Made by a program: the position numbers and the translations under genes. A DNA stretch of 27,333 nt from the NCBI GenBank assembly GCA_964388035.1, contig CAYLZE010000048.1, positions 1 to 27,333 of the forward strand, given 5' to 3'. Of this stretch, positions 2,473 to 7,319 are shown piece by piece. The stretch's first letter is position 1, and every line of letters begins with the position of its first letter. Below the pieces are notes generated by a model that was given only the letters and a program-made list of their open reading frames with translations, was not told the origin of the DNA and searched no databases. This DNA is from an uncultured archaeon. GTDB lineage: Archaea > Asgardarchaeota > Lokiarchaeia > Sigyniarchaeales > SOKP01.

Positions 2473-2910
2473 ATGGAAAATAATAAAATTGAAATAAAAA
2501 ATTTGACAAGGCTTTACACGCTCGTTTTATTAAAATTTAACAACATTATTTCGGGATATTCCATATTAAAACTTTTGGAAAAGGATCTTGGAAAAACCGC
2601 AAGTCCTACATATGTATATGATTTTCTAAATAAACTCGAATCGAATGGATATATTAAAAATTTAAAGCCATCAAAATCAAAGCGTTCTAAGGGATTCCAA
2701 CTCACATCAACGGGTAATGAATTTGTTAATAGTATTTTAACCCGATTCGATAATTTAATACAAGTTGCAATACAATCCAAGTTAAAAATATGCGTTAGCT
2801 GCGGAGTTAAATTGTATGAAGACTATTATTCGGAAAAGATAGGAGACAAGGAATATTATTTCTGTTGTGTGCACTGTGCTAAGGCATATAAACAAAATCT
2901 CAATCAGTAG
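2473..2910 (+). CDS. PadR-family winged-helix regulator with C-terminal TRASH/YHS-type metal-binding domain
   Basis: PadR-like ISGYSILKLL...SPTYVYDFLNKLESNGYI...FQLTSTG; C-terminal CVSCG-x17-YFCCVHC; SD-like GAGGAG upstream. Confidence 0.85.
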   Translation: MENNKIEIKNLTRLYTLVLLKFNNIISGYSILKLLEKDLGKTASPTYVYDFLNKLESNGYIKNLKPSKSKRSKGFQLTSTGNEFVNSILTRFDNLIQVAIQSKLKICVSCGVKLYEDYYSEKIGDKEYYFCCVHCAKAYKQNLNQ

Positions 2911-3039
2911 GTTTGATAGAATATCTTCCTAAATATAAAAAGAATAATTCTTCTTATTTAATTTCTCAAATAAACTTAAAGATAAAAAATTCGGTAATAA
3001 ACGTAATTTAAGTAAAAGAAAAAAAAATTGTATTCTGAA

Positions 3040-4473
3040 TCAAGAATGTAAATCTTTAATATCTATCCGCTCAGAATTATTCTTAAAAAATAACTTTTTT
3101 AGGGGTTCCAATGCTTTTTGATTCAATTCTTGTACCTTTTTTTCGTATGTGTCTCGAAAATGCTTTATTTCTTTTGGTAGAATTATATTAGGACTTTCTG
3201 GGCATACGATTCCATTATTCCTAATGATCCACCCTCTATGTTCGAGAGATGTAAGATTTTTTTCAATGATTGATTGCTCGATATTTAATGAGTCTATCAA
3301 TAATTCTTTTTTAGTTTCTCCTAAGGAAATTAACGTTGCATATAATTGTATTTGTAAATCCGTCAAATTTAAATATCTCAAGGTCATTAAGGTTTCTTCA
3401 TCGAAGTTTGAGATTCTTAACTTCTTTCGTGAAGAAGCTTTCTTTATTTTAGAAAGATCTGCTTCCAGATCAATTGTTATCGAGCCCTCTTCGAGTGCAG
3501 TATTAAATACCCTTTCCCCGATGTTATTTCGTATTATCACGCTATTCCAATTATCGGAAGGAGCCCCCGTGTTTCCCACGGAAATATCTGCATATTCTGC
3601 CGTATAATCCTTGCAATCCTTACAAGTAGACCATTCATAAGGTAAGATTTCCTTTAAAGGTACTTTAATGGACGTACCGTCATTTTTTAAGAGAATAAAT
3701 TTTCCCCGAGAAATATCCATCTTAGTAATGTCAGAGAGACTCAGATTTAATTTCTTTTTTATGAAAGTATCCAAAAGGTCATTGGAAAAATTTGCAGAGC
3801 AATAGAGACCGATAATTAGAGTAAAACTACTTAAAAATTCAGAAAGTGGGGGATAAACTTGTAATTTTCGCACAGCTTTTATTTGGCAAGGCATTCCAAC
3901 AAAAGCTAATTTTTTAAGATTGTATTTTTCAATCGCTTCTCTATATGGTACTAACGATGGAGCTATGGTATATTTAGAACCCATTGCAGATAGAATCTCT
4001 TCAGGAGTCTGGGCAATAATAGGCTTAGGTTTCCAATCCAGACCTCGATCGGTAAGAAGCACACCATCAATATAGCCCATTTCCAAGGCATGAATAAGTA
4101 ATGTGCTCACGATACCTCCATTCTGAGCTGCTTGTAAAATTCGTTTATGGGTGCTTTTTGCAATAACTATTTTTCTATAAGTTCCTAATAAAACATCATT
4201 TTTTGCTCCATCCTTAAAAAATTTGGCTTGCACGATGTCTTTAGGGAACTGGGTTCTTGCACAATATCGAAAGCATAAGGAACATTCGGGATCATAATCT
4301 TGAAGTGAAGGTTGTTCCTTAACTAACTCAATTCGAGGACATAAGGAAGAACATAATCCACATAATATGCAATTTTTTTCATCTACTACTAATTCTTTCA
4401 AATCTTGAAATCCTACTCCAAGATGGAAAGCTTCAAAGGAGTTATTTTCCTTTTCTTGGCATTTTTTCATCAT
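3040..4473 (-). CDS. Coenzyme F420 hydrogenase/dehydrogenase beta-subunit (FrhB/FdhB/FpoF family) with N-terminal ferredoxin and C-terminal TrmB-like wHTH
   Basis: CILCGLCSSLCP and CSLCFRYC; FrhB motifs QNGGIVSTLL, GSKY, VGMPCQ, IGLYC, CKDCKDYTAEYADISVG; about 120 extra C-terminal residues (LRYLNLTDLQIQLYATLISLG...LTSLEHRGWI...) resembling the TrmB N-terminal domain. Confidence 0.88.
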   Translation of the reverse strand: MMKKCQEKENNSFEAFHLGVGFQDLKELVVDEKNCILCGLCSSLCPRIELVKEQPSLQDYDPECSLCFRYCARTQFPKDIVQAKFFKDGAKNDVLLGTYRKIVIAKSTHKRILQAAQNGGIVSTLLIHALEMGYIDGVLLTDRGLDWKPKPIIAQTPEEILSAMGSKYTIAPSLVPYREAIEKYNLKKLAFVGMPCQIKAVRKLQVYPPLSEFLSSFTLIIGLYCSANFSNDLLDTFIKKKLNLSLSDITKMDISRGKFILLKNDGTSIKVPLKEILPYEWSTCKDCKDYTAEYADISVGNTGAPSDNWNSVIIRNNIGERVFNTALEEGSITIDLEADLSKIKKASSRKKLRISNFDEETLMTLRYLNLTDLQIQLYATLISLGETKKELLIDSLNIEQSIIEKNLTSLEHRGWIIRNNGIVCPESPNIILPKEIKHFRDTYEKKVQELNQKALEPLKKLFFKNNSERIDIKDLHS

Positions 4474-4558: not shown

Positions 4559-4687
4559 AGCGAACAAATCCAGAAAGAGTATCAGAAAAAGATCAAGCGG
4601 ATTTGTTTCGCTCATAAAATAATTACTACAATAATTTCGATGATCCTTGATAACAAGGAATTATTTAATATCGATATTGTAGAATTA
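4559..4687. repeat. Two tandem imperfect inverted repeats (hairpins) upstream of the frhB-like gene
   Basis: AGCGAACAAATCC (4559-4571) pairs with GGATTTGTTTCGCT (4599-4612, one bulge). AATT(A)CTACAATA(ATT)TCGAT (4621-4641) pairs with ATCGATATTGTAGAATT (4671-4687 region) and encloses TCCTTG-ATAA-CAAGGA (4644-4659). Confidence 0.6.
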
Positions 4688-4725
4688 CTCAAAATGATCA
4701 CTTATCATAAATATAATTTTGGACA

Positions 4726-6164: not shown

Positions 6165-7319
6165 TCAATTCCATTCTCGATATCTTTCCTTGGCATATCG
6201 CTGATAAACTTCTGGCATTCCCTTTTCTGGAACTTCTTGAGATACTTTTTCTATTTTTAAGTAATTTGTTGGGCAATTCGAAGCGCATAAGCCACAACCA
6301 ATACATAAATCCTTATTGATTTCAAAATTAAGGGTATCTTCTTTATTTGGCCAAGTTAAAATAGCATGAGTAGGGCAAACATCAAAACATCGATAACATT
6401 TTTTACATTCAACGTTCTCATCTATAACAGCTCTGAAATTCGAGGTTGCAAACATTCCTGGACGATGGAAAGTGGTTAATGCCCTGAGAATCCCACAGCA
6501 GTCCGAGCAACAATTGCAAATAAAATTCGTATCTTGCCCGTTCAATGCGGTATGAACCAAGCCTTTTTTCTCACAATCCTTTAATAATTCCAAGGTTTCT
6601 TCCCTTGTTAACCTTCTTGCCATTCCATTTTCAATGAAAAACTCTGCATTGATATCAAAGGAAATACAGGTTTCTTTTGGCTTATCACATCCCTTCCCCA
6701 GAATCTCGTGATGGACCCTACAAGAACAATTCATCACGCTGAAGGAATTCTTGCTGTTTACTATCGCTTTTATTTCTTCAAAAGGTAATACTTTTTGGGA
6801 CACATCGCCGATATCTTCATTGATATTGATTATTTTTTCTGAAGTTGTTGAAGGAATGACTCTTTGAAAGGGATAGGTAGATGCGGATATTATCGGAAAA
6901 AGAGTTCTTTCTTGATAATGTTCGAATAATTTTGCGACTCTTTTTTGCGTTTTTTCAGGCCAGATTTTAGCATTGCTAAAAAAAAATTCAAAAATGCCGA
7001 TAACAACTGGCCAGATTGCAAATTTTGCCCGTTTACGTGATTTACCTATTCGAAAAATTAATCCCTTATCCGCCAAGGAGTTCAAGGTATCTACTACATA
7101 ATCTAAAGGCTTGTTGCTTCTTTTAACAATTTCGATGGGAGAAACTCTGTCAGTAAGAGGGGCTTTAAAATGAACTAATAACTCGGCTTCTTCTTTAGTA
7201 AATAATTCTTGCAAGATTTGAATTATATCCCTTGATTTTGGAGCCCGTGTTGGCCAGCGATCCATTTTTTGTCTTAATTGTTCATATACTTCATCCGAAG
7301 GAGTACCAGTTGTAGTCAA
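6165..7319 (-). CDS. Fe-S protein: N-terminal HTH-like region, Cys-rich CNCCxxCC domain, C-terminal 2x[4Fe-4S] ferredoxin
   Basis: CSCR...CDKPKETC...ICNCCSDCCG; CKKCYRCFDVCP and CIGCGLCASNCP; TTG start. Confidence 0.85.
   Translation of the reverse strand: MTTTGTPSDEVYEQLRQKMDRWPTRAPKSRDIIQILQELFTKEEAELLVHFKAPLTDRVSPIEIVKRSNKPLDYVVDTLNSLADKGLIFRIGKSRKRAKFAIWPVVIGIFEFFFSNAKIWPEKTQKRVAKLFEHYQERTLFPIISASTYPFQRVIPSTTSEKIININEDIGDVSQKVLPFEEIKAIVNSKNSFSVMNCSCRVHHEILGKGCDKPKETCISFDINAEFFIENGMARRLTREETLELLKDCEKKGLVHTALNGQDTNFICNCCSDCCGILRALTTFHRPGMFATSNFRAVIDENVECKKCYRCFDVCPTHAILTWPNKEDTLNFEINKDLCIGCGLCASNCPTNYLKIEKVSQEVPEKGMPEVYQRYAKERYREWN

Follow-up and report, generated by a model that had tools for sequence, protein, structure and literature searches.

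Positions 1 to 27,333 of contig CAYLZE010000048.1 (assembly GCA_964388035.1), from an uncultured archaeon of the Lokiarchaeia (Sigyniarchaeales), constitute the stretch of DNA analysed here, which is referred to below as the window. Its reverse strand carries at 3040-4473 a gene (P0001) for a protein that combines in one chain a ferredoxin-like domain, a core of the FrhB family and a C-terminal tail resembling the N-terminal region of TrmB-family regulators. FrhB-type modules represent the archaeal route by which coenzyme F420 is linked to other redox enzymes, and the electron-transfer metabolism of the Asgard archaea is still mostly deduced from genomes. The gene and the parts of its product are as follows.

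3040..4473, reverse strand: open reading frame (ORF) P0001, FrhB-family protein with a TrmB-like tail, 477 amino acids (aa); intact ORF, Pfam domains and homologues.
4204..4413, reverse strand: N-terminal ferredoxin-like iron-sulfur (Fe-S) domain, residues ~21-90; Pfam Fer4, invariant columns and alignment to the ferredoxin domain of 8riu_B.
3952..4167, reverse strand: FrhB_FdhB_N, residues 103-174; Pfam 3.2e-23 and alignment to FrhB 3zfs_C.
3472..3915, reverse strand: FrhB_FdhB_C, residues 187-334; Pfam 1.1e-38 and invariant C196, C225, C284 and C287.
3400..3471, reverse strand: end of the FrhB fold plus linker, residues 335-358; invariant R349-K350-K351, aligned with the ...KK that ends the cores of FrhB and 8riu_B.
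3193..3399, reverse strand: TrmB-type winged helix-turn-helix (wHTH), residues 359-427, with the recognition helix at 400-412, a short wing at 416-425 and E404/K405 as the equivalents of TrmB Tyr50/Asp51; Pfam, AF2 model, structure and profile matches.
3076..3192, reverse strand: long amphipathic helix, residues 428-466, equivalent of the coiled-coil dimerisation helix of TrmB; model, conservation and superposition.

In Pfam, FrhB_FdhB_N and FrhB_FdhB_C reached 82.1 and 132.9 bits against gathering cut-offs of 22 and 23.3, Fer4 was weak (residues 29-46), and TrmB (PF01978, residues 365-421) was marginal, with 27.3 bits where the gathering cut-off is 25.6. The tail scored 31.4 on PF01978 in the genome-wide search, related fusions score 30.9-43.9 bits on the same family, and the effector domain PF11495 found no match in a Pfam scan of the 477-aa protein. 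A full-length AF2 model built on 53 homologues (predicted local distance difference test, pLDDT, 83; predicted template modelling score, pTM, 0.79) presents the tail as three helices, a two-stranded β-hairpin wing and a single helix of 39 residues (428-466), and the tail modelled alone reached a pLDDT of 89. Structural comparison aligned it with TrmBL2 (5bpd_A, residues 2-119) over 114 residues (Z 11.3, root-mean-square deviation 3.3) and with P. furiosus TrmB (3qph_A, Z 10.0); Lrs14-type proteins were also among the structural matches. When the tail alone was submitted to Foldseek, TrmBL2 ranked first, and the tail of the full-length model likewise matched TrmBL2. By sequence, the tail profile matches TrmBL2 and TrmB (3qph residues 5-105) with E ~1e-4 and reaches profile position 101-102. 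An earlier note on this DNA, made from its letters alone, had described an intact ferredoxin plus FrhB module followed in frame by a tail laid out like the DNA-binding and dimerisation region at the N-terminus of TrmB, and had suggested a fold comparison of the last ~120 aa; with Pfam, the models and the profile matches in agreement on a TrmB-type wHTH followed by a coiled-coil helix, its observation on the architecture was correct in every structural respect. The TrmB-family domain is placed C-terminally here (residues 359-466 of 477), not N-terminally.

The same note had asked whether the junction near position 3400 could be chimeric. Contigs from four independently assembled salt-marsh runs, which cover 2900-4070 of the window, span the junction at 3400-3420 with zero differences, and together with the many full-length relatives they rule out a chimera or misassembly. 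A word-indexed search returned more than 120 such relatives (469-499 aa, 45-60% identity), nearly all with the same three Pfam domains and, where the organism is named, all Asgard. Altogether, over 150 full-length relatives, for the most part Asgard, have this architecture. Likewise, all tail-reaching matches in a species-level genome collection were Asgard (Promethearchaeota, Hodarchaeota, Borrarchaeum, Sifarchaeum and Hermodarchaeota), and relatives from Bathyarchaeia, Methanomassiliicoccales and bacteria stop near residue 355, as does the Bathyarchaeia homologue L079, an ORF of 364 aa without the tail. An exhaustive tail-profile search added divergent fusions, such as the P0139 cluster (P0271-P0284) of 471-aa proteins (TrmB 30.9 bits) from Ca. 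Argoarchaeum ethanivorans and Ca. Ethanoperedens, which belong to the GoM-Arc1 ethane-oxidising Methanosarcinales; this cluster rules out strict Asgard specificity. Below the divergent fusions, the matches are ordinary TrmB/TrmBL2-sized proteins of 245-290 aa, which match at their N-terminus and are the likely source of the tail. A stand-alone tail gene was also considered and rejected, the short tail-profile matches (119-229 aa) being fragments of fusions, several of which begin inside the FrhB C-terminal region. Within the phylum the fusion occurs in scattered genomes only: searches with the tail profile and with the full-length profile concur in placing it in 19-20 of 201 sampled genomes (13 of 41 in genome family f1, all 4 in f16 and 1 of 22 in f5), which rules out a universal Asgard core gene. 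Twelve FrhB_C-type frames are encoded in the present genome, and the tail is found on this one only. The search across archaea that the earlier note had recommended thus recovered the architecture in many genomes, and no paper describing a FrhB-TrmB fusion was found in the searchable literature, just as the note had known of no described protein of this kind. The FrhB variant with a TrmB-family domain is conserved and apparently undescribed.

In TrmB, TrmBL1, TrmBL2, VNG1451C and MalR, DNA is recognised by Tyr50 and, to a lesser degree, Asp51 of the recognition helix, the exception being MreA (Ser/Leu), a TrmB-family regulator that lacks the recognition Tyr (PMC4158304). We compared the tail in 157 sequences of the fusion family with 12 canonical TrmB paralogues from the present genome, in which the recognition helix reads (R/K)-x-x-(I/V)-Y-x-x-L. 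The Tyr50 equivalent is Tyr in just 11 of the 157 fusion members and Glu404 in the present protein, where it is followed by Lys405, and position 402, the conserved Arg of the paralogues, is K/R in 9% of the members. The wing segment of the fusions always comprises 16 residues, 3-8 fewer than the 19-24 of the paralogues; its net charge is +0.5 ± 1.6, as against mostly +3 to +4 (range -1 to +4), and it is missing the basic R-P-K type motif that 9 of the 12 paralogues possess. For the whole wHTH of the fusions the net charge amounts to +0.2 ± 2.5. The same DNA-contact features have been lost from the Argoarchaeum (P0139) and P0140 fusions, and the nearest free-living relatives, e.g. P0141, retain the Tyr and the R-P-K wing. 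The caveat in the earlier note that the recognition helix EQSIIEKNL (residues 399-407) is without the usual residues can consequently be extended to the entire fusion family. Moreover, the buried residues Y378, L381, S383, L384, L392, L407, L410, W415 and P428 of the wHTH are conserved in at least 96% of the sequences, while column entropy reaches 2.5-3.1 bits, the highest values in the domain, on the solvent-exposed side of the recognition helix (400-402, 404-405, 408-409) and in the wing (417-419, 422, 424). Among orthologues of a transcription factor it is normally the recognition surface that varies least, and a variable recognition surface over conserved buried residues is the pattern expected of a structural domain.

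The upstream regions were analysed with a k-mer and dyad enrichment test, in which no short-spacer TrmB-type operator dyad was enriched among 45 orthologous regions. One palindromic operator candidate, AAATGATCATTT, has matches with at most 2 mismatches in 22 of the 45 loci, compared to a shuffle mean of 8.6, but no clear dyad; only the right half of the motif, GATCATTT(ATAT), is conserved, and it lies beside a TATA-like sequence or at the start of an upstream open reading frame (uORF). These results bear on the role proposed in the earlier note, namely a redox-sensing one-component regulator or trigger enzyme, in which the F420 or ferredoxin pool would set the flavin/Fe-S state and thereby alter the orientation or availability of a dimeric wHTH whose binding to promoters would tune redox genes. 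The architecture underlying this proposal is real, conserved and TrmB-like, and both sequence and fold place the tail in a DNA-binding superfamily. However, the proposal has to accommodate the loss of the Tyr/Asp pair, a short and nearly uncharged wing within a wHTH that is close to neutral on average, a recognition-helix surface less conserved than any other part of the tail among orthologues 45-60% identical overall, and upstream regions in which no shared operator dyad was found, their strongest conserved features being of the RNA type (a uORF and stems with G-U pairs). The catalytic features are fully kept, as in a working enzyme, and on balance we consider such a regulator unlikely.

After the wHTH, helix 428-466 superposes on the corresponding helix of TrmB and TrmBL2, and hydrophobic positions are kept at a spacing of 3-4 residues (431/432, 436, 439, 443, 447, 450, 454/455, 458 and 461/462), forming a nearly invariant stripe; P428, E435, N465 and N466 are invariant. 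In TrmB the amphipathic helix after the wHTH forms a coiled coil that drives dimerisation (PMC4158304), and in the fusion protein it would, by analogy, pair two chains into a homodimer. Since the DNA-reading residues have been lost from the tail, it is more probable that the tail brings the enzyme together as dimers than that it switches genes. The C-terminal 120 residues would then have come from the N-terminal wHTH and coiled-coil region of a TrmB/TrmBL2-type protein and been exapted as a structural element, in which the winged helix is presumably kept as a folded scaffold or docking surface and no longer as a domain that binds specific DNA sequences.

Conservation is strongest in the FrhB part of the protein, with a mean column entropy of 1.10 bits compared to 1.69 bits for the wHTH. 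Eleven Cys are invariant in 53 sequences. Seven of them (C35, C38, C41, C45, C64, C67 and C71), together with the likewise invariant D61, make up the N-terminal ferredoxin-like domain, while C196, C225, C284 and C287 align with Cys of FrhB and 8riu_B and presumably ligate the [4Fe-4S] cluster of the core. In pairwise sequence comparison the core is matched best by M. marburgensis FrhB (3zfs_C; phmmer E 1.4e-60 over residues 95-351), the profile match to 8riu_B extends over residues 21-355 (E 4e-82), and Foldseek with the body of the model returned 8riu_B (E 6e-28, TMt 0.79) and the FrhB chains 9r51_B, 6qii_B and 4ci0_C (TMt 0.82-0.84). Among the NCBIfam models, the FrhB subfamily PRK09325 was matched at its very edge (270 bits, cut-off 269), and the scores for the frhB equivalog TIGR03289 (254.8 bits, cut-off 331.5) and for the FpoF models (168.5 bits against 444 and 167.1 against 475) fall below the respective cut-offs. 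FrhA is absent above cut-off from the genome, which is 96.7% complete (best frhA match 134.5 bits, cut-off 392.5), and Mer is absent above cut-off as well.

Coenzyme F420 is a plausible, sequence-based choice of substrate because genes of its biosynthesis are present in fusion-bearing genomes. CofH of the present genome scores 469.7 bits (cut-off 374.1) and adjoins a CofG-like gene, and CofD and CofE exceed their cut-offs in all five fusion-bearing genomes tested. In two genomes of the Borrarchaeum family f16 (G041 and G050; the contig of locus L013, from Ca. Borrarchaeum weybense, is represented by G041:C4) CofH was not found at E <= 1e-60, and a fusion operating without F420 was therefore considered for this family; both genomes contain CofE and five CofD-like frames each, so that F420 use is not contradicted there, and the repertoire suggests either FO salvage or an unusual F420-related gene set. 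The protein may accordingly be pictured as a soluble FrhB-family flavin/iron-sulfur electron-transfer enzyme, whose N-terminal ferredoxin-like domain would feed a core containing flavin adenine dinucleotide (FAD) plus a [4Fe-4S] cluster, and whose core most likely exchanges hydride with F420. Such an enzyme could act as a stand-alone F420(H2):ferredoxin-type oxidoreductase or as a plug-in F420 module.

Across 47 Asgard loci the fusion gene is monocistronic, and no fixed operon partner was found. The remark in the earlier note that the usual Frh, Fdh or Fpo partners are missing is true of the window, and FrhA is absent above cut-off from the genome as a whole, but it does not describe the family at large, as about 22 of the 47 Asgard loci contain genes for Hdr, MvhD, an FrhB paralogue or GlcD within 5 kb (neighbour families were characterised by annotating representatives). 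In Loki-type loci an MvhD(FlpD)-FrhB fusion of ~623 aa (L035:2876-4747, reverse strand) is directly adjacent, and HdrD-like CCG proteins, FrhB-GlcD fusions and an 849-aa DUF7347(wHTH)-HdrA-MvhD fusion (L022:136-2685 and L041:103-2652, both forward strand) are also found near the fusion gene; L004:12146-13437 likewise belongs to these nearby Asgard redox fusions. A winged helix on a redox enzyme is thus present at least twice in these Asgard lineages. The context fits an enzyme of an Hdr/F420 network and a regulator of that network equally and does not discriminate between them.

It is also relevant to another possible function of the tail, that of a heteromeric docking adapter, which would recruit the F420 module to an HdrA/MvhD-type bifurcating complex, to another redox protein with a wHTH or to a long coiled-coil TrmB-like protein, replacing the docking that other FrhB paralogues obtain from partners encoded in their gene clusters. 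FrhB-family modules plug into CODH and Fwd in Ca. Ethanoperedens (PMC11493965), and FrhB paralogues of anaerobic methanotrophic archaea (ANME) cluster with PFOR, CODH and HdrA (PMC9012536). The Hdr, MvhD, FrhB and GlcD genes in the neighbourhoods just described point in the same direction, the otherwise unexplained invariant E435, N465 and N466 on the long helix could mark a specific interface, and the genome encodes two giant proteins of a TrmB wHTH and coiled coil that might serve as partners. On the other hand, no partner is consistently adjacent, the window contains none, and the solved zeta subunit of CODH/ACDS is anchored to its partner by the N-terminal ferredoxin domain, not by the C-terminus (PMC11493965). 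We regard a dedicated docking adapter as rather unlikely.

In summary, we favor, with about an even chance of being right, an F420/ferredoxin electron-transfer module that is dimerised or docked through an exapted TrmB domain. Several observations weigh against this explanation. A coiled coil alone would suffice for dimerisation, and the retention of a folded 70-residue wHTH across lineages stays unexplained by it. The assignment of F420 specificity comes from homology alone, and some members of the FrhB family, such as HCAR (5dqr), do not use F420; 5dqr is among the profile matches of the present protein. Several basic positions flanking the recognition helix are conserved (K/R at K376 in 91%, at K397 in 81% and at R413 in 86% of the sequences), and in several loci the gene is divergent from, and ~190-240 bp away from, an FrhB-paralogue or MvhD-FrhB gene, a layout typical of a regulator and its target. 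Furthermore, the patchy distribution is as compatible with an accessory regulator as with an accessory enzyme. A regulatory function consequently keeps some probability, because all members, although widely diverged, keep a complete wHTH fold, because some flanking basic residues are conserved and because MreA, a working TrmB-family regulator, shows that the Tyr is dispensable (PMC4158304); the frequent divergent position next to FrhB, MvhD or HdrA-type genes and the wHTH (DUF7347) borne by the HdrA-MvhD enzyme of the same neighbourhoods would fit such a function, too.

The k-mer and dyad enrichment on the 45 upstream regions also revealed a conserved leader, consisting of a uORF of ~28 codons, an abutting stem and a conserved block further downstream. 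In the window its elements are the following.

4612..4701, reverse strand: conserved uORF in the 5' leader, GTG start, 29 codons, C-terminus rich in Ile/Leu/Val.
4560..4611, reverse strand: leader hairpin beginning directly after the uORF stop, with arms at 4611-4599 and 4571-4560.

An orthologue of the uORF, with 28 codons, is present in at least 17 Asgard loci (L003, L007, L010, L011, L014, L015, L019, L023, L028, L040, L043, L049, L051, L002, L005, L001 and L037), and its stop abuts a stem of 13-14 bp, GCGAAACAAATCC...GGATTTGTTCGC. RNAalifold predicted two stems, the second of them inside the uORF, with G-U and compensatory pairs, which indicates pairing at the RNA level and not a protein-binding inverted repeat. 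Other repeats in the intergenic region of the window were dismissed as AT-rich chance matches, and no Rfam family matches the leader. Among the sequencing runs listed as containing this sequence, none was of RNA. The Ile/Leu/Val-rich C-terminus of the uORF product can be compared with the ilv leader peptides of bacteria, and the leader, by which expression of the gene appears to be governed in cis, is possibly an archaeal leader-peptide attenuator. In eight further loci (L021, L022, L024, L026, L029, L032, L033 and L034) a box GATCATTTATAT(G) is conserved after an A-rich stretch at about -105 to -155 upstream of the fusion. This box is probably a promoter element of the B recognition element (BRE)/TATA type, and an apparent short uORF at the same place (M-x-I-D-H-L-Y) may be the box read as codons.

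Another conceivable role of the tail is a non-specific association with nucleic acid, in which it would either hold the enzyme on the nucleoid in the manner of the chromatin binder TrmBL2 or bind the structured leader RNA of its own mRNA. In one large clade the structured leader always accompanies the gene. The best structural match of the tail, TrmBL2, is indeed a non-specific chromatin protein, and a variable recognition helix would be tolerable in such a role. However, the wHTH and its wing carry little net positive charge, RNA binding by TrmB domains is without evidence, and TrmBL2 keeps the Tyr50 that is lost here (PMC4158304), which makes a non-specific association very improbable.

The remaining neighbours of the fusion gene in the window are genes for a sulfatase, a PadR-TRASH protein, a D-serine-dehydratase-like protein (divergent), an Fe-S protein and a CPBP protease. 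The divergent D-serine-dehydratase-like gene is shared by the closest relative, L001, only. At 2473-2910 on the forward strand, convergent with the fusion gene, lies the gene for the small PadR-type wHTH protein with a C-terminal metal-binding TRASH domain, and at 6165-7319 on the reverse strand a 384-aa protein is encoded, which ends in a 2x[4Fe-4S] ferredoxin (residues 297-355) and whose N-terminal ~300 residues are without a Pfam match. Near the fusion gene of 11 Asgard loci (L035:6480-8794 on the reverse strand and 10 others) a gene pair was found that encodes a 561-aa protein with Mpt_N, the N-terminal domain of methylene-tetrahydromethanopterin (H4MPT) dehydrogenase, and a 209-aa protein without a family match. 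Elsewhere in the present genome, the two giant proteins mentioned above (833 aa at G000:C130, L119:386-2887:-, and 905 aa at G000:C8, L120:88-2805:-) begin with a TrmB-type wHTH without the Tyr and continue for hundreds of residues as apolipoprotein-like coiled coil; they look like another exaptation of a TrmB domain. Two short frames, at G000:C114:16038-16136 (reverse strand) and G000:C90:1628-1729 (forward strand), match the C-terminal end of the FrhA model and contain one in-frame TGA each; they may encode VhuU-type small subunits of a hydrogenase that contain selenocysteine.

If the favored explanation is true, a DNA-binding domain has been recycled as a structural or dimerisation part of a redox enzyme, which warns against calling such fusions regulators from Pfam matches alone. 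The less likely regulator would be the first F420-linked one-component regulator. Should the protein be a trigger enzyme, in which a dimeric, atypical TrmB winged helix goes on or off promoter DNA or its own structured leader according to the F420/ferredoxin-dependent redox state of the flavin, a case that we likewise judge unlikely, then the Asgard archaea and the ethane-oxidising Methanosarcinales would gain a direct one-protein link from the F420 pool to gene expression. The uORF-plus-hairpin leader is of interest in its own right, as leader-peptide control is poorly documented in archaea.

Among the known systems, the closest parallels are the zeta subunit of the F420-reducing CODH/ACDS (8riu_B) and FwdI (8rja_E) of Ca. 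Ethanoperedens thermophilum, in which an FrhB-type F420-reductase domain containing FAD and [4Fe-4S] likewise stands between an N-terminal ferredoxin domain and a C-terminal add-on; in zeta the C-terminal extension makes the interface of a homodimer (PMC11493965). The last residues of the zeta core, ...SRKK, align with the invariant R349-K350-K351 of the present protein, so that the TrmB tail sits exactly where zeta has its dimerising extension. In contrast, the extension of zeta comprises ~20 residues compared to a 120-residue wHTH and coiled coil here, zeta is encoded with and bound to CODH whereas the fusion gene is monocistronic and has no fixed partner, and the identity between the two proteins is ~30%. 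FrhB of the F420-reducing [NiFe] hydrogenase (3zfs_C/4omf, 9r51_B, 6qgr_B) resembles the fusion protein in core sequence, in the conserved, aligned cluster Cys and in an NCBIfam subfamily score that just reaches the cut-off, but it has neither the N-terminal ferredoxin domain nor the tail and works within FrhABG, while in the present case the frhB equivalog score is too low and FrhA is absent above cut-off.

TrmB and TrmBL2 (3qph, 5bpd) share with the tail a wHTH followed by an amphipathic dimerisation helix (PMC4158304). They differ in that the domain is C-terminal in the fusion, where it lacks an effector-binding domain, Tyr50/Asp51, the basic R-P-K motif in its short wing and a conserved recognition surface. 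A flavoenzyme and a DNA-binding domain are joined in one chain in PutA, in which the redox state of the flavin controls DNA binding, and Rex is a wHTH protein that reads NADH/NAD+. Both are analogies for a regulator only and not homologues; they have conserved, basic DNA-binding surfaces and known operators, neither of which is seen here. DsrD offers a further analogy, being a winged helix that is associated with, or fused C-terminally to, a subunit of a redox enzyme (DsrB-DsrD) and makes protein-protein contacts instead of binding DNA, although it belongs to an unrelated wHTH subfamily and a different enzyme and has no coiled-coil helix. Lastly, in L045 (588 aa), a close Asgard paralogue, the C-terminal place that the TrmB tail has here is taken by a polyferredoxin, which together with other FrhB fusions (FrhB-GlcD, MvhD-FrhB) indicates that FrhB cores are modular and that this site accepts attachments.

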